In this document: in pieces, positions 25,420 through 43,977 of the stretch
Position numbering within the stretch: position 1 is the first letter of the stretch
How the letters are laid out: each line of letters opens with the position of its first letter
NCBI GenBank assembly: GCA_964599645.1
Contig: CAZRGQ010000002.1
Location: 22,275-86,274, forward strand
DNA length: 64,000 nt
Reading direction: 5' to 3'
Origin: an uncultured Lentisphaerales bacterium
Lineage (GTDB): Bacteria > Verrucomicrobiota > Kiritimatiellia > RFP12 > JAAYLN01
Notes under the pieces: model-generated
What the model was told of the DNA's origin: nothing
The model's database searches: none
What the model saw: the letters and a program-made list of their open reading frames with translations, nothing else
Made by a program: the position numbers and the translations under genes

Positions 25420-27534
25420 TCAGGCCTCGGTAGCGGCCTGCTGGTCGCGCTCTTTCATCGCTTCGCGACGGCTCAGCTTGATGCGGCCGCGGTCATCGAC
25501 GGCGATCACCTTGACCCACATCTTGTCGCCTACCTGACAGACGTCTTCGACGCTGCGGATACGGGCATCGGCCAGTTCGCTGATGTGGCAGAGGCCATCC
25601 TGGCCCGGCAGAATCTCCACAAAGGCGCCAAACTCCTTGATACCGGTGACGGTGCCTTCGTAGATGCGTCCCTCTTCAACCTCGGCAGAGATCGCTTCGA
25701 CCTCACGCACGGCGAGTGACATCGACTCGCTGTTGGTGGCGAAGATCGAGACGGTGCCATCCTCTTCGATGTCGATCTGGGCGCCGGAGAGCTCGGTAAT
25801 GCGGCGGATGTTCTTGCCGCCGGGACCGATCAGGCCGCCGATCTTGTCGACTGGAATGACGATGGTCGTGATGCGCGGCGCGTGGGGCGAGAGTTCGGCC
25901 CGCGGTTCGGCGATCACGCTCTCCATGAAGTCGAGAATCTTGAAGCGGGCATTGCGCGTCTGGCGCAGCGCCTCTTCGACGATATCCCAGGTTAGGCCGC
26001 GCACCTTGAGGTCGACTTGAAAGCCGGTAATCCCCTGGCGGGTGCCGCTGACCTTGAAGTCCATGTCGCCGCAGTGGTCTTCGCTGCCGAGGATATCGGT
26101 AACGACCACGGTACGGCCATCGGCGGCGGTAAAGAGTCCGGCCGAGATACCGGCCACGGGGGCCTTGATGGGGATACCGGCATCCATCATGGCGAGGGTG
26201 CCGACGCAGACGCTGGCCATCGAGGAGGAGCCGTTGGAGCCCATGATCTCGGAGACGACGCGGATCGTATAGGGGTAGTCGGCGGGAATCACGGGGCGCA
26301 GTGAGCGCTCGGCAAGGGCGCCGTGCCCGACTTCACGCCGTCCGGGACCCATAATGCGGCGCACTTCGCCCACCGAGTAGGGGGGGAAGTTGTAGTGCAG
26401 CATGAAGGCTTTCGACTTCTCGCCGCCGACAATGGCGTCGAGCTCCTGGACATCCTGTTTGGTGCCGAGGGTGACGGTCGCAAGCGACTGCGTCTCGCCG
26501 CGGTTGAAGAGCGCCGAGCCGTGGGTGCGCGGCAGGAGCCCTACCTGAGCCGAGAGGGGGCGCAGCTCTTCGGCGGCGCGGCCATCGCTGCGCTTGCCAT
26601 GTTCGAGGAGGTTGCTGCGGACGGTCTCGATCTCGAGGGCATCAAAGAGACGGGCAAAATCGTCGTCGCTCACTTCGGGGAAGAGCTCCAGCAACTTGGT
26701 CCGCAGCCCGGCCTTGATCGTGCCAACACGCTCCTGGCGTTCGAGTTTGCCGGCAATCTGCAACGCCTGGGAGAGGCTGTCACCGACGGCCTGACGCAAG
26801 GCCGTCATCTGCTCGTTGTTGGGCGGGGTCTCGACGATCACCTTGTCAGGCTTGCCGAGCTTGCGGCGCAGTTCGATCTGGAGGTCGACGAGGCGCACGA
26901 CCTCCTCCTGGGCCACCTTCATGGCGGCGAGGAAGTCGTCGTCGGCGATCTCATCAGCGCCGCCCTCCATCATCAGGAAGCGGTCGCGTGTGCCGGCGTA
27001 CATCAGGTCGAGGTCGCTCTTCTCGCGTTCTTCATTGGTGGGGTTAATGACCCAGGCGCCAGCGACACGTCCGATACGGACAGCGGCGATCGGGCCGTAG
27101 AAGGGGACTTCCGAGATGTGTAACGCGGTACTGGCGGCGATCACGCTCAGCACGTCGGGATCGTTGACGCCATCGGCCGAGAGGAGCATGTTCATCACCT
27201 GCACGTCGTTATAGTACCCCTCGGGGAAGAGGGGCCGGATGGGGCGGTCGGTGAGACGTGCAATCAGGGTCTCGCGATCACTGGGGCGCGCTTCGCGTTT
27301 GAAGTAGCCGCCGGGGAACATGCCGGAGGCGTAGTAGCGCTCGCGGTAGTCGACCTGCAGCGGGAAGTAGTCGATCCCCTCACGCGGGGTATCGGTGTGG
27401 CAGACGGCCGAGAAGAGGATGGTGTCGGCCAGGCGTACCGTGACCGAGCCGGCCGCCTGTAGCGCCAGCAGTCCGGTCTCGATCGTGATCGTTTGTCCAC
27501 CGATGGTGGTGGAGACGGATGTTGTTGTGTTCAT
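25420..27534 (-). CDS. pnp: Polynucleotide phosphorylase
   Basis: The 704-aa product has two RNase PH domains, a KH domain and a C-terminal S1 domain (…[29 protein letters not shown]…). Confidence 0.95.
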
Positions 27535-27686
27535 GTGTCCTTTCTGGACATGGCGTGCCGGGCGGGCACCAGTTATAGCGCTCCACGCTACGGGCGTGGG
27601 TTATGCCACCCTCTGCCTGCGCTGCAACTCCGGCGGAGAGCCTCTCCGCTTTCGGGGCAGAGCAGGTCTGGAGGGTCTCTTTTCGC

Positions 27687-27950
27687 CTAGCGGCGAATAC
27701 CGAGTTCCTTGATCAGACTCTGATAGCGCGCTTCATTCTTGCGCTTCAGGTAGTCAAGGAGACGGCGGCGGGCGCTTACCATACGGATCAGCCCATAACG
27801 GGAGCTCACATCCTTGGGATGCGTCTTGAGATGCCCGGTAAGCATCTCGATCTTTTTGGTAAGCACTGCGATCTGCACTTCGCTCGAACCAGAGTCATTG
27901 GCATGACGCTGGAAGGCTTGGCGTACGGCTGCTTTGTCAATTCGGCTCAT
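27687..27950 (-). CDS. rpsO: 30S ribosomal protein S15
   Basis: The product reads MSRIDKAAVRQAFQRHANDSGSSEVQIAVLTKKIEMLTGHLKTHPKDVSSRYGLIRMVSARRRLLDYLKRKN… (87 aa). The downstream intergenic region has the perfect hairpin CGGAGAGGCTCTCCG before pnp. Confidence 0.9.
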   Translation of the reverse strand: MSRIDKAAVRQAFQRHANDSGSSEVQIAVLTKKIEMLTGHLKTHPKDVSSRYGLIRMVSARRRLLDYLKRKNEARYQSLIKELGIRR

Positions 27951-28259
27951 GTTAACCAGGGGTCCTTGCCCAGCACGACGGTGTCGTTTGTACTTCTTGT
28001 CGTTAATTCCAGCGTGCAATATGGACTCTCCGCTGTGGAAAGTCAAGCGAGTTCGACCTCGGCACGGTGGCTGGGACAGAACACCGGGAGTTCAAAGCCG
28101 CAACGGGGAGACCAGCTCCAAGCACGCCGCAGGTAAATTGCGTTACATCTTACAGTTTTAAGCGGCATAAAGCAAACAGAAAAGTTGCAAGGTTGTAGCC
28201 GGCTCGCCAACCTGCTATGCTCTCCCGCCAGCAACGACCAATGCGAAGAGAGTGACATC

Positions 28260-29336
28260 ATGCTGCTACCAACCGGAAGTGAAGCGCAACGGCGCCAATG
28301 GTATCTCAAACTGGCGGCTGGCAACCCTGCCATGCCGATCGGCGCCGACCTCTTTCTACATACCAAGCCGGACCATGCTACACGCCTCTATGACGGTGCG
28401 GCGCTGGCGGAGGTCATCATCGAGGCGGCAGACTACTTTAAAACGCCGCTGGCGCTGCCGCTGATGGACCTGACAATCGAGAAGCGCTGGTTGCTGGAGC
28501 TGCTTGGCCAGCCGGCGGTTGCGAACGACGACTATCACTTTACCGAACCGCCGACTGCCGCCGCCGTGGCGCAGGTGGCAGCAGGAGTGCAGGGACCCCC
28601 TACCCGACGTCTGGCGGCAAGTTGTGAAGCCCTGTCACATGTTGCGGCACGGGGCGACCTGGTGGCGGTGGGGATGGCGATCGGCCCCTTCTCGCTCCTG
28701 ACCAAGCTGCTGAGCGACCCCATTACAGCGGTCTTTCTGGCCGGCAGCGACGTGACAGCAGCCGAGGAGCCGGAAGTGGCAACAGCCGAAGTGGCGTTGC
28801 AACTGGCGACGATGGTCGTGCTGCGCAGTCTGGAGCTGCAGGTGGCAGCCGGAGCGCGCCTGATCTGCCTCTGCGAGCCGGCGGCCAACAGCGTCTACCT
28901 CTCGCCGCGTCAGATTGAGGCGGGGAGCGACATCTTCGAGCGCTTTGTGATGGAGCCCAACCGCCGCATCAAGGGGCTGCTGCGCAGTCTCGATTGCGAT
29001 CTGATGTTCCACAACTGCGGCGAGTTGAGCGACCGGATGGTAGATGAGTTTAACAGCCTCCACCCCGTGATACTCAGCTTCGGCTCCTCACGCAAACTCT
29101 GGGAGGATGCGGCCCGTGTTGCGCCAGATGTCGTGCTTTTCGGGAATCTGCCCTCCAGGAAGTTCTACTCCGACAGCGAGTGCTCCGTTGCCGCCGTAGC
29201 GGAGATGGCTGCGACGTTGCGCAGCCGCATGGCCGCCACGGGGCACCCCTTTATTCTGGGAACTGAGTGCGACGTCCTCTCTGTGCCAGAGGCGCACGAC
29301 ACGATTATGGCGAAAGTGGCATCTATGATGCATTAG
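28260..29336 (+). CDS. Uroporphyrinogen-decarboxylase (URO-D/MtaA-like) family protein
   Basis: The TIM-barrel regions …LMFHNCGELSDRMVDEF…ILSFGSS… and FILGTECDV are typical of the URO-D / methylcobamide methyltransferase family. The start is placed at MLLPTGSE…. Confidence 0.5.
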   Translation: MLLPTGSEAQRRQWYLKLAAGNPAMPIGADLFLHTKPDHATRLYDGAALAEVIIEAADYFKTPLALPLMDLTIEKRWLLELLGQPAVANDDYHFTEPPTAAAVAQVAAGVQGPPTRRLAASCEALSHVAARGDLVAVGMAIGPFSLLTKLLSDPITAVFLAGSDVTAAEEPEVATAEVALQLATMVVLRSLELQVAAGARLICLCEPAANSVYLSPRQIEAGSDIFERFVMEPNRRIKGLLRSLDCDLMFHNCGELSDRMVDEFNSLHPVILSFGSSRKLWEDAARVAPDVVLFGNLPSRKFYSDSECSVAAVAEMAATLRSRMAATGHPFILGTECDVLSVPEAHDTIMAKVASMMH

Positions 29337-29392: not shown

Positions 29393-30616
29393 ATGATCAG
29401 AAGAATCCGCTTAACCTTCCTCTCCACCTTCCGCCCCAACTCAGGCGCACTCCCCTTCTTTACCAGCATTATCGTCTGGGGCATCGGGGCCGGCTGTTTT
29501 GCCGCCACGCTGAACAACTTCCTCGTCGACATTTACGACCTGAGCGAGGTGCAACGCGGACTGCTGGAGTTTTTCCGTGAGATGCCGGGGCTGCTGCTCG
29601 TCTTTCTGCTGGCCCTGCTCCATCGCAAAAGCGACTGGTACGTCTTCCGCCTCGGCCTCCTGATTGCGATGGCCGGCGCCATTCTGCTGACAATACCGAC
29701 CAACTTTGCCGTCGCCACCCTGCTGATCATGATCTGGAGCACGGGCGAACATCTGGCGATGCCGGTACGCCATTCGATTGCGATGAGTGTGGCCCGCAAG
29801 GGGCGGGCCGGCGCTTCGCTCGGTTATGTCAGCAGCGCCCTGAATGGCGGCCATGTGGTGGGCAACCTGCTGGTGGCGCTCCTCTTCCTGCTGGGAGTGA
29901 GCTACTTCAAGGTCGAAAAGAGGGTGATACTCTACAACATCGTCTGGATCCTGATCTTTCTCCTGGCGGGGACTTCGGCCCTCTGTACTCTGTCGCGCCA
30001 CAAGCAGGAGGCGCCCGTCAGGCGACCGCGCCTCCTGTTGCGGCGCAAATTTGGCCTCTTCTACGGTCTGGAGCTCTTCTACGGCGCGCGCAAACAGATT
30101 TTCCTCACCTTTGCCCCCTTTGTGCTGATCCGCGAATATGGCGCCGATACGAGCTACATGGCGCTCCTCCTGGGTATCGCGGCGCTGCTCAACATGGTGG
30201 CCGGCCCCTGGATCGGGCGACTGACCGACCTGCTGGGCTACCGCACCGTGATGGTCTACGACACCTTTATCCTCGTCTTCGTCTGCCTGCTCTACGGCTT
30301 TGCCGGCGACTGGTTCCCCCGCCACATAGCCTTCTGGGTGGTTTCACTCAATTTCCTGCTGGATGCCATTATCAGCACCACCTCGCTGGCAAGCAATATC
30401 TACGTGCGAGACATCTCGTCCAACAGCGAAGAGCTGACCTCTACACTCTCGACCGGCATCTCGATGAACCACCTCGTCTCGGTAGTCGCCGGGCCGCTCG
30501 GTGGCATCGTCTGGATGCGTTGGGGCATCGGGCCGCTCTTTGCCATCTCGGCCCTGCTGGGTCTGGGCAATTCGTGGTGTGCTATGCAGATTCCACTGCG
30601 CAAGGGAAATCGATAG
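29393..30616 (+). CDS. MFS transporter
   Basis: The 407-aa product has about 12 hydrophobic segments and an MFS-like loop pattern. Confidence 0.7.
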   Translation: MIRRIRLTFLSTFRPNSGALPFFTSIIVWGIGAGCFAATLNNFLVDIYDLSEVQRGLLEFFREMPGLLLVFLLALLHRKSDWYVFRLGLLIAMAGAILLTIPTNFAVATLLIMIWSTGEHLAMPVRHSIAMSVARKGRAGASLGYVSSALNGGHVVGNLLVALLFLLGVSYFKVEKRVILYNIVWILIFLLAGTSALCTLSRHKQEAPVRRPRLLLRRKFGLFYGLELFYGARKQIFLTFAPFVLIREYGADTSYMALLLGIAALLNMVAGPWIGRLTDLLGYRTVMVYDTFILVFVCLLYGFAGDWFPRHIAFWVVSLNFLLDAIISTTSLASNIYVRDISSNSEELTSTLSTGISMNHLVSVVAGPLGGIVWMRWGIGPLFAISALLGLGNSWCAMQIPLRKGNR

Positions 30617-31319
30617 CCAGCATCGGACGCGGGTTGTCGGTGATGATCCGCTCGACACCGGCACCGGCCCAGAAGGCGACCCGCAGCGGATCGTTGACGG
30701 TCCAGACACCGACGTGAAGCCCCTGCTGCCTGGCGGCCACCACATGGTCGCGGGTCAGGGTGGGGTTGCCACAGTGAATCCATGGAAGCTGATGTTCCAG
30801 CGCCAGCGGCATGACCGTCTCCACCTTGCCGAGCAGTGCGAGGCCCAGAGTTGGTGCGAGAGCTCTGACGGCCAGCAGGATATCGAGATGGAAGGATGAG
30901 ATCACATAGTCGTCGAGCTTGTCGAAACGGCGCAAGAGCCGCACCACCTCAGCGACGGCTGCGGCTTCATCCGGCTGGCGTTTGATCTCGATGTTGAGTC
31001 CGAGCGATGTGGCGCTGATCAGCTCCAGGGCGCTTTCGAACGTCGGCACCGGCTCACCGGCAAACTCGGCTGCCCGTCGCACGCCGGCGTCGAGCGAGTA
31101 GAGTTCGGCAGCCGTCTTGGTGGCCACGGCGCCTGTACCATCGGTTGTGCGGTCGACGGTGGCATCGTGGATCACCATCAGCGTGCCATCCGACGAGAGA
31201 CGAACGTCGAGCTCGATAGAGGCGGCCCCCAGCACTATGGCCCGTTTAAAGGCGGCCAGGGTATTCTCAGGGGTTTCGGCATTGGCGCCGCGATGTGCTT
31301 CAATAATTGGTTTGGCCAT
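30582..31319 (-). CDS. Glycerophosphodiester phosphodiesterase
   Basis: The product has the GDPD motifs MAKPIIEAHRGANAETPENTLAAFKRAIVLGAASIELDVRLSSDGTLMVIHD and …NIEIK…. Confidence 0.8.
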   Translation of the reverse strand: MAKPIIEAHRGANAETPENTLAAFKRAIVLGAASIELDVRLSSDGTLMVIHDATVDRTTDGTGAVATKTAAELYSLDAGVRRAAEFAGEPVPTFESALELISATSLGLNIEIKRQPDEAAAVAEVVRLLRRFDKLDDYVISSFHLDILLAVRALAPTLGLALLGKVETVMPLALEHQLPWIHCGNPTLTRDHVVAARQQGLHVGVWTVNDPLRVAFWAGAGVERIITDNPRPMLAIDFPCAVESA

Positions 31320-31525: not shown

Positions 31526-34500
31526 TCACCTGTCACCTTGGCTGCCGCAACAGCGCTTATATTTTTTACCGCTACCACAGGGGCAAGGGGCATTGCGCCC
31601 TACCTTGCTGTTTTGGAGGTCTTGTGTTGCCGGTGCAGCTCCGAAGCCGGGAGGCTGCCGGGGCTGGTAACCGTCATCAGCTCCGGTCTGGAGTTGTCGG
31701 TATGCCTTAAGGGAAGATTTAAAATCTTCGTCGAAATCATAGCGGTTATTACTCCTATGGTGGTTCTGCTTCACTTCGAACTCCTGAGGCACCTCATCAT
31801 CAAACCAACCGGCGCTATCATAATCGGCCGTAGCAACATCAGACCCGCTGCCGCTGTAGCTGTTTTTCCGCGCCGGCCGTGCAACGGAAGCGGTCTTGCG
31901 CTTCCAATTGCTGTCAAGCAGTTGACCCATTGTCTGGTAAGTATCTTTGCAGTGAACCCGGTTGCCATAGCGGCCAAGTATTCTCTCGCCGATACTTTCT
32001 GTTTTTTGCCAGGGTGTCAAAGCGCTACTCGCAGCCAACTCTCCAAGCGTCAGCACGCGTTTATCAATCAATCCCAAGCGTATCGCGGCCTGAAGCTCGA
32101 GGTTTAATTCGTTTGGGAAATGGGTAGCAGCAAAGGCAACTGCCTGATTGACGATAACCAGGTAGGGGCCCAAGTCGCTACTCTCCCGACAGCCGCGTTG
32201 AATGATCCGCCGCAAGAGCGTCAACATGATGGCGGGATTCAGGTTGCGATACCGGTAGAGCAGCTCCATCGCCCGCAGCATGGCAAAGGTGTGATAGGTG
32301 GCAACATCGCCACTGCTCTGGTATTTGATATCATTGAGAATCGGTTTTAGATTGCCATCGCAGACGGCAGAGATTGCCGGAGCGGTAAAATTCCACCACT
32401 CGCGATAGTTAAGCTGCCCGATAAATTTGGCCAGCACTCTGTGCGCCTCGACCATGAGGTTGTAGTGTCCGGTGGAGCACCATTCACCAAGCTGGGCGAT
32501 GGCATACAAGAGGCCAAACTCCTCATGCTCTCCAATCCGGCCGTGCTCTGTCACCCTCTTCAAAAAGGCGCCGAGCGTCCAGGCCGCCACTTCTGGCTCT
32601 TGCTGCATCCAGGCTATCTCGCCAAAGCGCCCTTCAAGGTGGTTGCCCAGAGCCGACATGGCGTCGGCATGGCGTTGCCGCTCGGCCTGCTTTGTTGGTT
32701 CAGTCGCCCGACCGATGGGAACGCTATCCGCAAGCTCCTGCAGTTTGACCACTTCAGGGAGCGGCTGCCCCTGATCGACAAATCCTGCCGCACCGGCCTC
32801 CTGTTCCTCCGGCTCCCCCGCCGGCATCAGACCGCTCGCCGCATTCAGGCGCTTTACAATGCGGTTGCGTTCCCGCTCCAGATAGTCGAGAAACCTATCC
32901 GGCCCCTCGCCGGCATACTCATTCTTGATCTCAGCCACATGCACCATCTGGTAGAGGTTGTGCCACTGGCCATCACGCTCCAGCTCGATCGCCGGGTTGG
33001 GCAGATAGTAGCCCCGGCTGATGCGCCAGAAGAGCTGGCGGTTGTAGCGTGCCTCGCGATCGACCTCGTTGCCCGCCAGAGTTGCCGAGATGGCGCTGCG
33101 TTTGCCATAGCGCTTCGGGATTACCGACTCGGGGAAGTCGACCAGTTCAGCCTCAAAATCGGCCGCGGTAAAGCCCGGTTTATACTCCACGCCATGAACT
33201 GAAGTGAGCTTCTGCACCAGGCGGGCAATCATCGAGTGGAAGAGGAAGAAGCCGAGTCGGTGGCGGTCAAGTTGCACCAACCGGTTGCCGACACGCAGGT
33301 TGGTGGCCGGGGGCACCAGCAGGGCGTAGAGTTGCGGCAGCGTGTTGCGGGCGTGGAGTACGTTTTGATAGGCCACCCGCAAGGCCAGATGTAGCGGCGT
33401 GCAGCCCCAGGAGTCCGTTGCAGTACGACTGGCACCGGCCGCTATCAGCTCGGCTACCAACCGCTCCTGACCGAGCTGCACCGCCATCATCAGTGGTGTC
33501 AAGTTGACCTGGTTACGGAAATCGACTCCGTGCCGCTCAATTTTACGCCACAGATCGCGGTGTCCCCGCTGATGGTAATCGATACCAAGGCGTCGCATGG
33601 CATCGTTGCGCGCCAGATTGATGCGTATCTTGTCGATTGCGGTTTCGTGATGCTTGAGTTCAAAAAAGAGGGTGTAGAGGCCGTAACAGATGGTATAGTC
33701 AGCCAGTGGGCGGAAGAGGTCGTTTTTGACAGGGTTTCTCTCTTGACGCCACTGTTCGAGGCGCTCGATGAGGTTGTCGGGGGTGATCACAACCCACGGC
33801 ACTGGCTCGAGCTGCAAGATTTTATCGGCAATCGCCTGCGACTGCTCCAGCTTTCCCTGCCGCTCCAGGCGCAACGCCTCGGCGCGCCACTCGTCGTCGC
33901 TCGAACGCTCCTCGACAAGCCCAGCCTGCCCCCGCTCCTGCAGCCTGAGCAGACGCAGCAAGGGGTGTTCCGTCTGGCGTTCCAGAATATAGACGTGCGC
34001 AATGGCGCGCGTCAGGGCCACGTAGAGGGCGTTGATGTAGAACTTGAAGGCGTCCAGCGAGCGGTCGCTCTTATCGCGTGCCCGCCCATATTTAAAGTCG
34101 TTTTCAAGGTCGGCTTCCGTTACGCCCGTCACGATCTGATTAAATTCGGCCGCCTGCCCTGAAACCAGCCCCGGCAGGATGATGTGTTCATACTCCAAGC
34201 CCTTGGCTTCACGTACGCTGAAGACCAGTGGTGTGGCAAAGCTCTGCCGGGCGGCCTCTTTATCCTCATCGCGCAACACGATAACGGCAAAGCGGGTGGA
34301 GCGCGATGTCTTCTGATCCAGCTCGCGTCTGGTGGCCGCTGTATCTGCCAGAAATGTGACCCCACCGGCCCGCTCACTGACCGGTTTGATCAGATAGTGG
34401 CTTTCACGGTCGATTGAGCCGAAACGCGCCTGTTTGATGCGCAACAACCGGTTGGCAACCTCGGTCACCTCGGGCGCATTGCGATAGTTGGCGTTTAAAA

Positions 34501-35650
34501 TCCGTACCAACTCGCCATGAGCGGCCGGCTGATAGTCGTGAAACCACGTCTTGACGCCAGCCCAGGAGAAGAAGTTGGGGTGGACGATCTGGTTGGAGTC
34601 GCCACACAGGACAAACTGCCCCGGCGTGCGCAAGGCCTGCAGCGCCAGACTCAACTGCACCGTGGTCATATCCTGCACTTCATCGGCGACGATGAAGTCG
34701 TAACGTGCCTGGCAACGTTTGTGATGGTCGTAGCAGACTAGATTGAGGTCATAACAGCCGCTCTGGGGCAGCCATGCCAGATAGCGGAGGAAGAGGTCGT
34801 AGATCAGCGGACGCTCATCAGCGGTAAAGATCGAGCGTCGCACCCCGAGCGAGAGGTACTCTTCGCGCGTCAGACAGGGGTTTTCAACGGCTGATCCGGT
34901 CAGGACACCGTTAAACTCCTCGTAGAGTTTGTGTGAATCGCGCTGTGCGCTACGTCCGCCAGAGCGGCGCAACCACTGTACAAAATCGGCAAACCCCAGC
35001 GGCCGCCCCGCTGGCACCGCAATTGATTCGACGAACTCCCGGAAGGAGAGAAAGTCGACCTCCTGGGCCTCGTTCTCATAGTTATGCGAAAAATAGATGG
35101 TGCGGGCATTATCGACCAGGTAGGGAGAGTGCGTCAGATAGAGCACCTCGCCCGGTAGCTGGCGCAACTTCTCAAGTGTCAGGACGGTTTTACCGCTGCC
35201 GGCGGCACCGATCAAAATCAGCGGTGGCGGCTGCTGCAATGCCTCTTGCTGGTCGTCATCAAACGAGATGATCTTGTCCAACAGATGGACGCGTTGCATC
35301 GCAGGGTTGAGATAGGCCAGCGGCACGACATCATCGGTAGTGAGCGGCTCAGCCTTTTCGAGTGAGACCAGACGATTCTCAGCCACGACAGCCCCGCGCA
35401 TAAAACGTGAGTTTTCGTAGTCGTGGTTGCGTATCACCTCGAGCAGGATCAGGGCGCGTTCACCACGACAGGCGCCGAAGCAGAAGAGCAGGCGATCGGC
35501 ATCAGAGAGCTTGGCACGGTAGAGATTGCCGGGCTGCATCTTTTTTACTTCGGCAGCTTTAAAATCACCTGCCGCAAGATATGCAACTGTACGCTCGAAA
35601 GGGCGCTTCAAACCTTGTGTATTGAGATCCTCGTACTGGAAAATTTGCAT
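31526..35650 (-). CDS. Multidomain fusion protein: N-terminal YoeB/RelE-like toxin domain, SF1A UvrD-like helicase core, ankyrin repeats, helical domain and C-terminal SEC-C zinc motif
   Basis: The track ORF begins at TTG 35686; the first ATG is 35650 (MQIFQYEDL…).
- The N-terminus (…NLYRAKLSDADRLLFCF…ERALILLEVIRNHDY) aligns with the YoeB/RelE C-terminus (…HRLVY…SLLIAACRYHY), including the catalytic-position H-x-Y.
- Helicase motifs are present: Q/I (QQEAL…LILIGAAGSGKT), II (ADEVQD), III (CGDSNQ), IV (NYRN), V (REAKGLEYEHIIL) and VI (YVALTRAIAHV).
- Ankyrin repeats are present: …NLTPLMMAVQLGQERLVAELIAAGA…GCTPLHLAL….
- The C-terminus reads …RNAPCPCGSGKKYKRCCGS, a SEC-C motif. Confidence 0.7.
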   Translation of the reverse strand: MQIFQYEDLNTQGLKRPFERTVAYLAAGDFKAAEVKKMQPGNLYRAKLSDADRLLFCFGACRGERALILLEVIRNHDYENSRFMRGAVVAENRLVSLEKAEPLTTDDVVPLAYLNPAMQRVHLLDKIISFDDDQQEALQQPPPLILIGAAGSGKTVLTLEKLRQLPGEVLYLTHSPYLVDNARTIYFSHNYENEAQEVDFLSFREFVESIAVPAGRPLGFADFVQWLRRSGGRSAQRDSHKLYEEFNGVLTGSAVENPCLTREEYLSLGVRRSIFTADERPLIYDLFLRYLAWLPQSGCYDLNLVCYDHHKRCQARYDFIVADEVQDMTTVQLSLALQALRTPGQFVLCGDSNQIVHPNFFSWAGVKTWFHDYQPAAHGELVRILNANYRNAPEVTEVANRLLRIKQARFGSIDRESHYLIKPVSERAGGVTFLADTAATRRELDQKTSRSTRFAVIVLRDEDKEAARQSFATPLVFSVREAKGLEYEHIILPGLVSGQAAEFNQIVTGVTEADLENDFKYGRARDKSDRSLDAFKFYINALYVALTRAIAHVYILERQTEHPLLRLLRLQERGQAGLVEERSSDDEWRAEALRLERQGKLEQSQAIADKILQLEPVPWVVITPDNLIERLEQWRQERNPVKNDLFRPLADYTICYGLYTLFFELKHHETAIDKIRINLARNDAMRRLGIDYHQRGHRDLWRKIERHGVDFRNQVNLTPLMMAVQLGQERLVAELIAAGASRTATDSWGCTPLHLALRVAYQNVLHARNTLPQLYALLVPPATNLRVGNRLVQLDRHRLGFFLFHSMIARLVQKLTSVHGVEYKPGFTAADFEAELVDFPESVIPKRYGKRSAISATLAGNEVDREARYNRQLFWRISRGYYLPNPAIELERDGQWHNLYQMVHVAEIKNEYAGEGPDRFLDYLERERNRIVKRLNAASGLMPAGEPEEQEAGAAGFVDQGQPLPEVVKLQELADSVPIGRATEPTKQAERQRHADAMSALGNHLEGRFGEIAWMQQEPEVAAWTLGAFLKRVTEHGRIGEHEEFGLLYAIAQLGEWCSTGHYNLMVEAHRVLAKFIGQLNYREWWNFTAPAISAVCDGNLKPILNDIKYQSSGDVATYHTFAMLRAMELLYRYRNLNPAIMLTLLRRIIQRGCRESSDLGPYLVIVNQAVAFAATHFPNELNLELQAAIRLGLIDKRVLTLGELAASSALTPWQKTESIGERILGRYGNRVHCKDTYQTMGQLLDSNWKRKTASVARPARKNSYSGSGSDVATADYDSAGWFDDEVPQEFEVKQNHHRSNNRYDFDEDFKSSLKAYRQLQTGADDGYQPRQPPGFGAAPATQDLQNSKVGRNAPCPCGSGKKYKRCCGSQGDR

Positions 35651-35700
35651 ATTTGCAAGCTTATCAATTGCAACCTGCGACAGCAACCACGTTTAACTCT

Positions 35701-35726: not shown

Positions 35727-35825
35727 AGGCCGCTTACTCATGCACTTTCTCCAGCTCTGGCGGCTAACCAGAGGTTCGCCCTCCAGTTAGCCCTGTCAAG
35801 CATCTGGTCTGATTTTGCCGCCGTG

Positions 35826-38800
35826 CTACTCGACTTCGATACCGAGGATATCCTGCGCCTTGCGCTGGGCAGCCTCGACATCGTCGCGCAGCTCTTCGGC
35901 ATCGATCGGCTCGGCGAGTGGCACCAGCTTGATGTGGCGGTGCATCGGGAAGCCGGTACCGCCGGGGATCAGGTGACCGAGGATCACATTCTCCTTGAAG
36001 CCGCGCAGCTCGTCGACGCGCCCCATCGTGGCGGCGTCGGTCAGGACACGGGTGGTATCCTGGAACGAGGCTGCCGAGATGAAGCTGTCAGTTTCGAGTG
36101 AAGCCTTGGTGATACCGAGCAGGGCGGGTTGCGCCTCGGCCGGGCGTTTGCCTTCGGCCATCATCTTGTTGTTCTCTTCGATGAACTGCTGACGTGAGAC
36201 CTGCTCACCCCAGAGGAAGTCGGTGTCACCGGGGTTGTTGATCTTGACCTTGCGCAACATCTGACGCACGATGATCTCGATATGTTTATCGTTGATCTCG
36301 ACGCCTTGTAGACGGTAGACCTGCTGCACTTCGCTTACGAGGTAGCGCTGCAGCTCCTGTGGTCCGCAGGCATCGAGAATCTCCTGCGGCACGATCGGCC
36401 CCTCAGTAAGCTGCTGCCCCTTGCGGACGCGGTCGCCCTTGAAGACAACGATATGCTTGCCCATCGGGATCAGATGCTCTTCGTAGGCGTTGGTGGTCTC
36501 GTCACGGATGATGAGGCAACGACGCCCGCGCTGGTTCTCGCCGAACTCGACGACACCCTCAATCTTGGCGATGTCGGCGGCATCCTTGGGGTGACGCGCT
36601 TCGAAGAGCTCGGCCACACGCGGCAGACCGCCGGTGATATCGCGGGTCTTCTCCTCCTTGCGGGGAGTCTTGGCCAGCAGGACACCGGGCGAGACGCTGT
36701 CGCCCTCCTTCACCATCACGTGGGCGCCGACGGGAATATGGTAGTAGCCGAGGACATCGCCGCTCTTGGCATCGGAGACGACGATCTGCGGGTGGAGCTG
36801 CTCGCGCGTCTCCATCACCACCAGCGTCTGCAGGCCGGTAAGGCTGTCGCGCTCGGTCTGCACCGTCTCATCCTCGACGAAGTCGTGGAAACTGACGATA
36901 CCGGTCTTCTCGGCCAGGACGGGCACGCTGTGCGGGTCCCAGTGGCCGACGAGCTGACCACCCTTGACGGCCTCGCCGTCGTTGATTATCAGCGAGGTGC
37001 CGATCTGGAGCGTGACGCGCTCGAGTTCGCGGCCGGTGGCATCGCGGATGACGATAGCGCCATTCTTGTTGAGCACGATGTTGTGGCCGTTATCGTCGCG
37101 CACGACACGCAGATCGTCTTCGTAGAAGATATGACCGGCATGACGTGTAACGATCTCAGGTGTAGCAACCACCGCCTGCGCCGTACCACCGACGTGGAAG
37201 GTACGCATCGTAAGCTGGGTGCCGGGCTCACCGATCGACTGGGCGGCGACGATGCCGACGGCCGTGCCGATCTCGACGAGCTGACCGGTAGAGAGGTCGC
37301 GGCCGTAGCAACGGGCGCACATGCCGTGGCGGGCATCGCAGGTGAGTCCGCTGCGAATCCAGACACGGTCGATCTGGGCGGCATCGATGCGGTCGCAGGC
37401 AGCCTCGTCGATCTCCTCATCGGCGGCGAGAATGATCTCGTTGGTGAGGGGGTGGATGATATCGTGCAGTGAGGTGCGGCCGAGGATGCGCTGGCGCAGT
37501 GGGAGGTTGCCCTCGCCCTCGGTGCTGGTACTGATCTCAATACCGTTGACGGTATTGCAGTCCTGCATGACGATATTGACGTCCTGAGCGACATCGACCA
37601 GCTTGCGCGTGAGGTAGCCGGCATCGGCCGTCTTGAGCGCCGTATCGGCCAATCCCTTACGGGCGCCATGCGAGGAGATGAAGTATTCGAGTACGCTCAG
37701 GCCTTCGCGGAAGCTGGCGGTAATCGGGTTTTCGATAATCTCGCCCGACGGCTTGGCCATCAGGCCGCGCATACCGGCGAGCTGCCGGATCTGAGCCTTG
37801 GAGCCACGCGCCTTGGAGTCGACCATCATGAACATCGGATTGATCTCGGTCGGGTTGGGCGTCAGTTCGGTCTTGTTACGATCGATGGCACGGTAGAGGT
37901 CGTCGCTGATCTTCTCGTGCGTGGCGGTCCAGACGTCGACCACCTTGTTGTGGTGTTCGCCCTCGGTGATGACACCGGCCTGGAGCTGCTGCTCAACCTT
38001 ACGCACCTCCTGGCGCGCCTTCTCGATCAGTTCGTCCTTGGTTTCGGGACGGATCATATCCTTGAGACCCATCGAGACGCCGGCGAGGCAGGCATGTTCA
38101 AAGCCCATCTTCTTCAGATCGTCAAGCACAGTGACGGTACGGTTGTGGCCGGCTACCTGGTGGCACTGGAGGATGAGGTCGCCGAGTTTGTTCTTGTCGA
38201 CCTTCTCATTGACAAAGCCGAGCTCCCCGGGCCAGATCTCGTTGAAGATGACGCGCCCAACGGTGGTTTCGAGCAGCTTGAGCTCGCGGTTGCCGACAAT
38301 CGTATCGCGGTTGTAGTCGGGATTGCGGAAGCGGATGCGCGAGTGGATCGCGACGTGGCCTTCGGCGTGCGCCAACAGTACCTCATCAGTGGTGCCGAAG
38401 AACGGCAGGCGTTCGTCGGCGCCGAAGGGGTGACGCCCGGCGACGCGGCTGTTGAGTTTGTCCTGCTGTCCGGCGGCGGTGAGGTAGTAGATACCGAGGG
38501 CGATATCCTGCGTCGGAGCCATGATCGAGCGCCCGGAGGCGGGCGAGAAGATCGAGTTGCTGGCCAGCATCAGGAGGCGGCTCTCGATCTGCGCTTCGAC
38601 CGAAAGAGGAACGTGAACGGCCATCTGGTCGCCGTCGAAGTCGGCATTGAAGGCGGTACAGACCATCGGATGAATCTGAATCGCTTCGCCCTCGATCAGG
38701 ACCGGCTCGAAGCTCTGCATCGAGAGGCGGTGGAGTGTGGGGGCGCGGTTGAGCATCACCGTTTTGCCCTTGATCACCTCTTCGAGAGCCGCCCAGACCT

Positions 38801-40022
38801 GGTCGTCGTGACGCTCGATCAGGCGGCGGGCGCTGCGCACCGTGTGGCAGATGCCGAGGTGTTTGAGGCGGCGGATGATGAAGGGCTCAAAGAGGGTCAG
38901 CGCCATCTTCTTGGGCAGTCCGCACTGGTGGAGTTTCAGTTCGGGACCGACGACGATGACGGAGCGGCCGGAGTAGTCGACACGCTTGCCGAGGAGGTTC
39001 TGGCGGAAGCGGCCGGTCTTGCCCTTGAGCATATCGCTGAGCGACTTGAGGGGGCGGTTACCGGTGCCGGAGACGGCGCGTCCGTGGCGTCCGTTATCGA
39101 AGACGGCATCGACCGCCTCCTGCAACATGCGCTTCTCGTTGCGAATGATCACATCGGGCGTCTTGAGCTGCAACAGGTTCTTGAGCCGGTTGTTGCGGTT
39201 GATCACGCGACGGTAGAGATCGTTGAGATCGGAGGTGGCAAAGCGACCGCCCTCGAGCGGCACGAGGGGGCGGAGCTCGGGCGGGATGATCGGCAGCACG
39301 TCGAGTATCATCCACTCAGGCTTGGCGCCGCTGGTGCGGAAACCTTCACACGCCTTCATGCGTTTGGTGATCTTTTTGCGCGTCTGCTTGCTCTTGGTGT
39401 TTTCGATCTGCTCTTCCAGCTCGATCATCATCTGGTCGAGATCGATCTTGGAGAGGCAACGGCGGATGGCATCGGCGCCCATCATCGCCTCGAAGTTTTC
39501 GCCATACTTCTCGACAGCCTCGGCATACTCGGCTTCGGGCAACAACTGGAGGTATTCGAGCGGCGTATCGCCGGGGTCGACGACGAGGCGATCCTCGTAG
39601 TAGAGGATGCGCTCGAGCTGTGTGGCGGTGAGGTCGAGCATCAGCCCGATGCGGCTCGGGGTACACTTGAAGAACCAGATGTGCGAGACCGGCACGGCCA
39701 GCTCGATGTGTCCCATGCGTTCACGACGCACGCGCGAGACGGTCACCTCGACGCCGCAGCGGTCGCAGACGACGCCCTTGTGCTTGATGCGCTTATACTT
39801 GCCGCAGGCGCACTCCCAGTCGCGTGTCGGCCCGAAGATACGCTCACAGAAGAGCCCGTCGCGCTCGGGGCGATAGGTACGATAGTTGATCGTCTCGGGG
39901 TTGCGCACCTCGCCGTGGCTCCAGGAACGCATCGTTTCGGGTGAGGCCAGTGTGATGCTGACGGCATCATAGCTGTCGCCTTCAAAAGCCCCTGAAACAT
40001 CTTTGGCTACATAAGGATTCAC
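35826..40022 (-). CDS. rpoC: DNA-directed RNA polymerase subunit beta'
   Basis: The 1398-aa product has the NADFDGD catalytic motif, a zinc-binding CxxC N-terminus, and overall RpoC layout. Confidence 0.95.

Positions 40023-40044: not shown

Positions 40045-43977
<3,933 letters not shown>

Follow-up and report, generated by a model that had tools for sequence, protein, structure and literature searches.

RelE/YoeB-type RNases are known either as small toxins restrained by an antitoxin, or as effectors that are switched on by a fused sensor, such as the CARF domain of Cami1, or by the operon in which they are encoded, as for ArmD and CnuH. The pairing of a RelE-like domain with a helicase already has precedent in these last two proteins. 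ArmD of ARMADA type II (E. coli NCTC 12900, WP_000218177.1) is described in a recent preprint as a RelE-like domain combined with a helicase, and defence is lost in its Walker A K266A mutant, showing that the ATPase motifs matter (bioRxiv 10.1101/2025.09.15.676423). CnuH of CoCoNuT types II and III-A is an SF1 helicase that carries a RelE/colicin D-like "RNase toxin-like" (RTL) domain (eLife 2024, PMC11090510); an earlier note on the DNA analyzed here had claimed that no described family combines an mRNase fold with a helicase, and CnuH contradicts this claim. Also relevant are the MBDs of SecA and YecA, which bind ribosomes and SecB (bioRxiv 10.1101/613315, 10.1101/2020.07.21.215244).

The protein described here is encoded in the window, the whole 64,000-nucleotide stretch of DNA from an uncultured Lentisphaerales bacterium that was analyzed, by a coding sequence at 31526..35650 on the minus strand (1374 aa plus stop). 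The mechanical open reading frame spans 31526-35686 on the same strand, or 1386 aa counted from a TTG at 35686; because the N-termini of homologues, which begin "MR[IV]LQ...", line up with the methionine at 35650, the ATG at this position is the likely start, in keeping with the single polypeptide of about 1374 aa given in the earlier note. The gene is real, and its product is a large UvrD-type helicase with a tethered YoeB/RelE-fold domain and without an antitoxin. A 100% identical product is found on 14 contigs from different metagenome runs, four of which were inspected. No direct or inverted repeats pointing to a mobile insertion flank the gene in the window, and no Rfam elements were found inside or around it.

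The neighbors in the window are rpoC (35826-40022, same strand), which lies 139 nt from the TTG and 175 nt from the ATG, and a GDPD-family gene; the coding sequence comes directly downstream of rpoBC. The same arrangement in the identical contigs would suit an RNA polymerase- or transcription-linked factor acting in HelD- or UvrD-like RNAP recycling, as would the HelD structures among the Foldseek matches and a weak NCBIfam HelD match (E 7e-4). That match, however, scores 17.6 bits where the cut-off is 419, the HelD-type N-terminal coiled coil is absent, and a 13-bp hairpin 3' of rpoC may mark the end of the rpoC transcript. The adjacency to rpoC, which had been offered as a functional clue, is confined to near-identical contigs belonging to this organism (L001-L004); at the remaining loci checked (L005-L088), no rpoC flanks the gene. 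Linkage to rpoC was accordingly rejected as a family trait, and a transcription-linked role, largely refuted by this lack of conservation, is very improbable.

The RelE/YoeB-fold domain occupies residues 1-96 (35363..35650, minus strand), where beta1 is followed by a helix, four strands and an "RNHDY..SRF" segment, the compact beta-alpha-beta(3-4) arrangement of the RelE fold. The fold previously proposed for residues 1-130 was thus found, though this region has no Pfam match, including to PF06769 (YoeB_toxin) and PF05016 (ParE_toxin). In a profile search against PDB sequences the domain matched no toxin, and the best 150 of 722 N-domain profile matches among 1.84 billion proteins include no free-standing toxin, all being members of the helicase family or fragments thereof. 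Across 336 unique N-domains, K37, R45, R53, E71, H76, and Y78 are near-invariant (R53 and H76 in 335 each, Y78 in 332), while position 34 is Asp or Glu in 264 and Gln in 54; R82 is also nearly invariant in the domain. The register against E46, R65, H83, and Y84 of YoeB was taken from strand order together with non-significant alignments (E 0.1-0.3); two independent hhalign profile alignments of this kind place E/D34 on YoeB E46 and R53 on YoeB R65. In this register, the near-invariant Arg, His, Tyr, Lys, and Glu residues appear to occupy YoeB catalytic-type positions, and the catalytic residues look intact. The domain is joined to the motor by a linker, residues 97-132 (35255..35362, minus strand), that is predicted to be disordered, with pLDDT below 50 at 99-104 and 106-132 in a 925-aa model. 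Routine annotation misses the N-terminal domain altogether, and some gene calls truncate it; the public call P0001, for instance, begins at a later Met and loses its first 37 residues.

Residues 133-560 (33971..35254, minus strand) comprise a helicase core in which motifs Q, I, Ia, II, III, IV, V, and VI are intact, with the strings Q134, GAAGSGKT (148-155), DEVQD (323-327), GDSNQ (350-354), YR (389-390), EAKGLE (481-486), and VALTR (544-548, containing R548); the motif residues are invariant in 53 family sequences. Pfam matches in this core are UvrD-helicase (PF00580, 26.6 bits, cut-off 23), AAA_19 (PF13245, 27.1 bits, cut-off 25.1), and UvrD_C_2 (PF13538, 27.3 bits, just under its cut-off of 27.4), and the top Foldseek matches are FBH1, PcrA, UvrD, and Rep (E 1e-11 to 1e-9, TM to target 0.35-0.47). 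Motifs, Pfam scores, and fold similarity place the core in the SF1A UvrD/Rep/PcrA-like class. When a profile of the family core was compared with PDB sequences, ankyrin/DARPin matches dominated and the search was uninformative on the helicase.

UvrD-like motors usually work on DNA, and we therefore infer a link to the ribosome from the N-terminal domain alone. The likeness of the motor to the DNA enzymes UvrD, Rep, PcrA, and FBH1, and to RNAP-binding HelD, is consistent with a RelE fold that is catalytically inert and acts as a binding module, with the ribosome, RNA, or (as for ParE) a protein like gyrase as its partner, thereby localizing or regulating a DNA helicase that works in plasmid maintenance, repair, or conflicts between replication and transcription. 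Carriage on plasmids and the absence of RNase toxin families from the Pfam and PDB-sequence matches fit such a module as well. An inert fold is nevertheless considered improbable, given that, from the alignments, the near-invariant Arg, His, Tyr, Lys, and Glu residues appear to fall together at the positions of the YoeB active site.

The motor is followed by a conserved all-helical region, residues 561-700 (33551..33970, minus strand), recognized from secondary structure, pLDDT, and conserved columns, and by about two ankyrin repeats, residues 701-778 (33317..33550, minus strand; Pfam Ank_2 E 5e-6, Ank E 1.8e-5), where profile matches to ankyrin/DARPin chains fall at profile positions ~703-763. 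A conserved alpha/beta domain, residues 779-925 (32876..33316, minus strand), with strands at 782-795 and 874-898 and pLDDT mostly above 85 in the 925-aa model, forms the last part of the family core, the alignments of which stop at about 905-925. Beyond it, residues 985-1340 (31631..32698, minus strand) form a subfamily-specific region homologous to DUF1186-containing tails (BLAST to P0004, E 7e-27; full-length alignment with the 47%-identical homologue P0010). PF06685 (DUF1186) is found in P0010 (E 4e-14) and P0004 (E 5e-8); the window protein itself has no Pfam DUF1186 match but aligns with the DUF1186 region of P0010. The C-terminus carries a SecA-type SEC-C metal-binding motif, residues 1352-1369 (31544..31597, minus strand; PF02810, E 7.7e-9, 35.7 bits, cut-off 20.4), the Cys ligands of which, C1356, C1358, C1367, and C1368, sit in "...APCPCGSGKKYKRCCG". 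The SEC-C MBD is confined to a subfamily (PVC, Acidobacteriota, and some others) and therefore lies outside the conserved core; as judged from the alignments, the 925-aa core makes up the family, and the DUF1186/SEC-C tail is an extra carried by a subfamily. Pfam, Foldseek, motifs, and fold thus bear out the earlier reading of the protein as a YoeB/RelE fold, a UvrD-like SF1A core, ankyrin repeats, and a SEC-C motif.

The rarity implied by the earlier note did not survive the homologue search, which returned more than 4200 homologues in at least 10 bacterial lineages, with 41-65% identity across phyla. In GTDB, at least 273 of 185,579 species carry a homologue. The gene occurs in 115 of 5426 E. 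coli genomes (~2% of complete genomes) as integrative-island cargo, two of the four copies inspected being pseudogenes. Plasmid-borne copies are found in Shigella (pINV), Deinococcus, Methylosinus, and Piscirickettsia, and the copy on Shigella and EIEC virulence plasmids is intact and adjoins shf-capU-virK-msbB2. BrnTA or AbiEii adjoins some family copies, and no homologue was found in the phage genomes searched. The protein tree mostly matches taxonomy, with PVC, Bacteroidota, Betaproteobacteria, and Methylococcales clades, and local synteny is common to close relatives.

Immediate neighbors in ~75 genomes are mainly housekeeping genes, and 144 flanking ORFs gave 147 different Pfam families, each in three loci at most. 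A 177-aa ORF upstream of the gene in E. coli islands was seen in E. coli loci only and has no match in Pfam or PADLOC. The absence of a separate antitoxin, as first read from the window, where no antitoxin-like ORF adjoins the gene, extends to the wider family, in which no neighbor is conserved across ~80 loci and a search of 76 loci for a conserved small ORF upstream found none. A type II toxin-antitoxin module was rejected, as no cognate antitoxin gene was found in ~80 loci. PADLOC lacks a model of the family and gives only partial GajB-like matches (window protein E 3e-9, E. coli copy E 3e-11), and Gabija GajB was itself rejected as an identity, since these matches span only ~90-140 residues (motifs II-III or V-VI) and no GajA-like neighbor is present. 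Literature searches returned no paper on the family, on the Shigella pINV ankyrin/helicase gene, or on an ankyrin plus UvrD defence system, in agreement with the original view of a family without a described function.

The best explanation, to which we assign a probability of roughly 0.4, is that these are tethered-RNase UvrD-like proteins in which helicase-gated, ribosome-directed mRNA cleavage serves as a conflict or stress module. The members would be stand-alone UvrD-like (SF1A) ATPases in which a flexible tether of ~35 residues holds a YoeB/RelE-type endoribonuclease domain at the N-terminus. This domain would be an active ribosome-directed mRNA endonuclease, the access of which to the ribosome may be gated in cis by the helicase, ankyrin repeats, and C-terminal body, leaving no role for an antitoxin. 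The motor, on engaging a nucleic-acid or protein cue using ATP, would decide when the RNase cuts, and cleavage of mRNA in the ribosomal A site would then stop translation. In the window subfamily, the DUF1186 and SEC-C tail may supply an additional module; modules of this type are known to bind ribosomes and SecB. By analogy with the proposal for ArmD, such a self-contained module might couple the sensing of phage or foreign nucleic acid to translation shut-off. The E. coli islands, plasmid carriage, pseudogene copies, and BrnTA/AbiEii neighbors form a conflict-type context that argues for defence; the largely taxonomy-following tree, the unusual conservation of all domains (41-65% identity across phyla), housekeeping neighbors, and lack of a PADLOC model or phage copy count against it.

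Much of this contrary evidence would suit a cellular mRNA/ribosome surveillance factor, in which the YoeB-like domain would probe A sites left empty on stalled ribosomes and cut the mRNA, generating a non-stop substrate for tmRNA-type rescue, with the helicase clearing the mRNA or reeling it in. In function, such a protein would resemble helicase-coupled quality control factors like Upf1 and not an immune protein, and it would need no antitoxin because cleavage would be limited to stalled ribosomes. The tree and shared synteny, strong purifying selection on every domain, and the predominance of housekeeping neighbors point in this direction, as may, by analogy, the two ribosome-binding-type modules of the long form (YoeB fold and SEC-C MBD). 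Less readily accommodated are the patchy spread over GTDB species and E. coli genomes, plasmid and island carriage in Enterobacteria with some pseudogenes, the unconserved rpoC linkage, and the motor class, as characterized members of SF1A act mainly on DNA. Surveillance is thus a possible, if somewhat unlikely, role; it is almost equally supported, and the conflict or stress role is preferred narrowly.

Thousands of members in at least 10 lineages keep a RelE/YoeB fold permanently tethered to a UvrD-like motor without an antitoxin or partner gene. Gating of the RNase by the motor, once worked out, would represent a new mode of control for a ribosome-directed nuclease and would decide between an immune and a translation-surveillance role. 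If the latter is true, the family would signify a prokaryotic counterpart of Upf1-like helicase-driven quality control and a case of a toxin fold being domesticated in the absence of an antitoxin. The family lends itself to experiment and has a medical connection, being present on Shigella and EIEC virulence plasmids and in ~2% of complete E. coli genomes.

Among known systems, ArmD likewise carries at its N-terminus a RelE-like domain, predicted to be an RNase, in fusion with a (GajB-like) helicase of the UvrD family. The distinctions drawn here follow the published description of ArmD, as far as accessible. As there described, ArmD is the fourth gene of a strict armA-armB-armC-armD operon and needs ArmA, ArmB, and ArmC (BrxHII-like helicase, PglX-like methylase, and YprA-like helicase), whereas genes of the present family stand alone, and no helicase or methylase neighbors are conserved at their loci. 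The Walker A lysine is residue 266 in ArmD and 154 in the window protein, and the accessible description reports no ankyrin repeats, alpha/beta C-terminal domain, or DUF1186/SEC-C tail for ArmD. CnuH, similarly an SF1 helicase with a RelE-like domain, is predicted to target RNA or ribosomes, but its RTL is flanked by an SmpB-like OB fold on one side and the helicase on the other, and the protein is encoded in McrBC-type operons (PMC11090510); the window family is UvrD-like SF1A, with its RNase-fold domain at the N-terminus and without an operon. In Cami1 (CARF-RelE, a type III CRISPR ancillary effector, PDB 8phb), sensing falls to a CARF domain that binds cyclic oligoadenylate, not to an ATP-driven helicase.

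Unlike the type II toxins Txe/YoeB (and RelE, HigB, and YafQ), the N-domain matches neither the PF06769 nor the PF05016 profile, has one long helix where YoeB has two, and carries His-x-Tyr in place of the C-terminal His-Tyr of YoeB; it is also covalently tethered to a ~140-kDa protein without an antitoxin gene. The UvrD-like core is shared with GajB (Gabija), Nhi, and AbiO, though the Nhi-type nuclease domain is absent from the family. Finally, the C-terminal CxC...CC motif matching PF02810 is that of SecA, YecA (AscA), YchJ, and DUF1186 plus SEC-C proteins, but the SEC-C MBD here terminates a helicase.

The target gene, which encodes a UvrD-like helicase, occupies an open reading frame at 31526-35686 on the minus strand of the window and reads 1386 aa from a TTG codon. 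Homologous proteins begin with 'MR[IV]LQ...' in register with an ATG at 35650, and the product is therefore 1374 aa long, in agreement with the earlier note on both the existence and the size of the feature. In public databases the identical protein is listed as P0001 (1337 aa), a gene call that begins at a later, internal methionine and so omits 37 residues from the start of the N-terminal domain (N-domain, residues 1-96), encoded at 35540-35650 on the minus strand. The omitted part contains the first strand and the helix of the RelE-like domain. Because of this truncation, together with the lack of an HMM for the N-domain, routine annotation misses the toxin fold.

Pfam recognizes SEC-C (E 8e-9), UvrD-helicase/AAA_19, UvrD_C_2 and ankyrin regions in the target protein, with no match in residues 1-130. 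No toxin family was returned when a profile of target residues 1-100 and 32 homologues was searched against all PDB sequences, or when Pfam was run on each member of that alignment. The AlphaFold2 model built on the same alignment is confident (pLDDT 92.8) and comprises a strand (2-6), a helix (15-26) and three further strands (43-47, 53-61, and 64-73) in a RelE/YoeB fold. Among 336 unique N-domains, drawn from all homologues collected, the nearly invariant residues are K37 (334/336), R45 (329/336), R53 (335/336), E71 (332/336), H76 (335/336), Y78 (332/336) and R82 (316/336, with K in 15 others), while position 34 is D or E in 264 and Q in 54. Two profile alignments of the N-domain with E. coli YoeB, for which the query sequence was 99-100% identical to database YoeB, are non-significant (E 0.3 and 0.1) and share a register that sets E/D34 on YoeB E46 and R53 on YoeB R65. 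The strand register places H76 on YoeB H83, and Y78 one residue beyond YoeB Y84. This residue pattern suggests a working YoeB-type site, with a mapping onto YoeB that we infer, and the N-domain is predicted to be an active, ribosome-directed RNase. That it is instead an inert RelE fold used for binding only appears less likely.

In a model of the family core (925 residues, 53 sequences, pLDDT 81.6), the N-domain is connected to a RecA-like motor by a linker of low confidence (99-132); C-terminal to the motor are a helical region, roughly two ankyrin repeats and a domain of alpha/beta type. In Foldseek comparisons of the motor, FBH1, PcrA, UvrD, and Rep rank above HelD, AdnAB, and Upf1/Ighmbp2, and the SF1 motifs form a complete set in the target that is invariant across the family. 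Helicase matches in NCBIfam and PADLOC are only weak and partial (best, GajB-like, E 3e-9; NCBIfam HelD at 17.6 bits, where the cut-off is 419), and SEC-C is also matched. Past residue ~985 the target aligns with the tails of homologues bearing DUF1186 (PF06685); Pfam gave no match, DUF1186 included, on residues 985-1340 of the target itself, and a CxC...CC SEC-C motif closes the C-terminus. The domain reading made earlier from the sequence proved accurate, through the AlphaFold2 model for the RelE/YoeB fold, Pfam and Foldseek for the SF1 helicase, and Pfam for the ankyrin and SEC-C regions. We regard the RelE-type fold, its conserved polar site, the intact motor and the tether as established, and propose that the motor, ankyrin repeats and C-terminal body would control the putative RNase in cis.

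The SEC-C tail is of a ribosome-binding type, since binding to SecB and to ribosomes is known for SecA-like metal-binding domains (bioRxiv 10.1101/613315, 10.1101/2020.07.21.215244), and it favors a role for the protein in the cell's surveillance of ribosomes or mRNA, as does the strong conservation of every domain. The C-termini of the PADLOC models PDC-S12, E1-E2, and E2 match the target SEC-C at residues 1357-1381 (numbered on the 1386-aa frame), so zinc motifs of the SecA type are also found repeatedly among candidate defence proteins.

More than 4200 homologues turned up among 5.8 billion proteins searched, and the best 120 share 45-65% identity across the first 900-950 residues. Most are 930-1000 aa in length and correspond to the core alone, with DUF1186 and SEC-C added in a subset of 1320-1440 aa. 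With each GTDB species represented by a single genome, a scan confirmed relatives in at least 273 species, and those listed include members of the PVC group, Bacteroidota, Gamma-, Beta-, and Zetaproteobacteria, Nitrospirota, Desulfobacterota, Myxococcota, and Chlorobi, with Methylomicrobium lacus, Mucilaginibacter psychrotolerans, Thauera aromatica, and Paraburkholderia among the cultured carriers. The N-domain profile matched 722 proteins among 1.84 billion cluster representatives, and the best 150 of these are all target-family members or fragments, with no free-standing toxin. Phage genomes held no homologue. A neighbor-joining tree of 76 core sequences largely tracks taxonomy, which again speaks for surveillance: PVC, Bacteroidota, most Betaproteobacteria, Methylococcales, Zetaproteobacteria, and Myxococcota form single clades, with a few clear transfers (Nitrosomonas within Methylococcales, Chlorobiaceae within Betaproteobacteria).

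In the window, rpoC (35826-40022) and rpoB (40045-43977) lie upstream of the target on the same strand. A G+C-rich hairpin of 13 bp (35762-35792, minus strand; GGCUAACUGGAGG-GCGAA-CCUCUGGUUAGCC), perfect-looking with G-U pairs included, stands 34 nt past the rpoC stop without a U tract, and the rpoC-target intergenic region folds slightly better than its shuffles (z -2.1); the hairpin may be a terminator or a processing site. The position beside rpoC had been read as a functional clue, and it would also suggest a factor linked to RNA polymerase. The adjacency is confined to four near-identical contigs of the same organism carrying the identical gene (L001-L004) and is absent from all other loci checked (L005-L088); since the linkage is not conserved, an RNA polymerase-linked role is less likely and largely refuted. 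Downstream lie a GDPD-family gene (30582-31319), an MFS transporter gene (29393-30616) in convergent overlap with its 3' end, a URO-D-family gene (28185-29336, plus strand) two genes from the target, and pnp, encoding PNPase (25420-27534). The stretch 25420-29336, which also holds rpsO and an RNase T-like gene, is rich in RNA-metabolism genes, an arrangement not conserved around homologues elsewhere. A 1339-aa homologue, P0055, carries a URO-D (PF01208) domain, which may reflect fusion by the gene call or a linkage peculiar to the lineage.

The survey of neighborhoods that the earlier note had called for found no conserved partner gene: no family is common to more than 5 of ~80 loci, and no small upstream ORF is conserved across 76 loci. 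The 144 immediately flanking ORFs from ~75 genomes carry 147 different Pfam families, each in at most 3 loci. These neighbors are mostly housekeeping genes, a further point for surveillance, with a few toxin-antitoxin or defence families (AbiEii twice, BrnA, ResIII twice, DUF4143/AAA_14 twice). One homologue adjoins BrnT/BrnA and a reverse transcriptase, another AbiEii, and further homologues sit amid ordinary metabolic genes. The gene for the homologue P0020 (L092, 7039-13000) is flanked by two BPD_transp_1 permease genes within a cluster for an ABC sugar transporter; an SBP gene and a permease gene immediately precede it, and it looks as if inserted into the operon.

Enterobacteria present a different setting. 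Carriage on plasmids and islands points to a conflict or defence module, which we rate slightly above surveillance. Plasmid records with full-length copies, 42% identical across 98% of the core, number 101 for Shigella and 13 for E. coli, and plasmid carriers also include Deinococcus, Methylosinus OB3b, and Piscirickettsia. On the virulence plasmids (pINV) of Shigella and EIEC the gene adjoins shf-capU-virK-msbB2 and is annotated only as 'Ankyrin repeat protein' or 'UvrD-helicase domain-containing protein'. IS remnants flank the pINV copy, as at 8938-11862 of L089 (S. dysenteriae pSLG231). Examples of the E. coli or Shigella pINV protein are WP_000686652.1 and AHA69123.1. Of 5426 complete E. 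coli genomes, 115 have the gene, with 106 places chromosomal, where it is integrative-island cargo after 'inovirus Gp2 family - HTH/AlpA - hypothetical of about 178 aa'. This patchy distribution and the pseudogenes, which make up 2/4 inspected E. coli chromosomal copies, likewise favor conflict or defence. The pseudogene copies (L091, 12049-14898; L095, 10001-12912) carry an internal stop in one case and a frameshift in the other. In 4/4 inspected E. coli chromosomal islands, the gene is immediately preceded, on its own strand, by a ~177-aa hypothetical ORF (L090, 11422-11955; L091, 11401-11937; L095, 9402-9965; L096, 9420-9941). This ORF is 76-83% identical between strains and has no match in Pfam or PADLOC, and neither the Shigella plasmid nor any non-enterobacterial locus has it; it may be a partner particular to this lineage or just island backbone.

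Our search found no paper on the target family or the pINV gene. The family is large and unstudied, with a distinct, stand-alone, antitoxin-less architecture, and the Shigella virulence plasmid copy offers a tractable member. The earlier note knew of no described family that combines an mRNase fold, a helicase and ankyrin repeats, but for the first two of these there is precedent: SF1 helicases bearing a RelE-like domain have been described twice. The first is ArmD of ARMADA type II (WP_000218177.1), which is required for defence along with ArmA, ArmB, and ArmC (PMC12458937), and the second is CnuH of CoCoNuT types II and III-A, whose RelE-like domain is termed 'RTL' (PMC11090510). Because such fusions are known, the target architecture is not categorically new, and ArmD, CnuH, and the CARF-RelE effector Cami1 provide precedents for the conflict or defence role slightly favored here.
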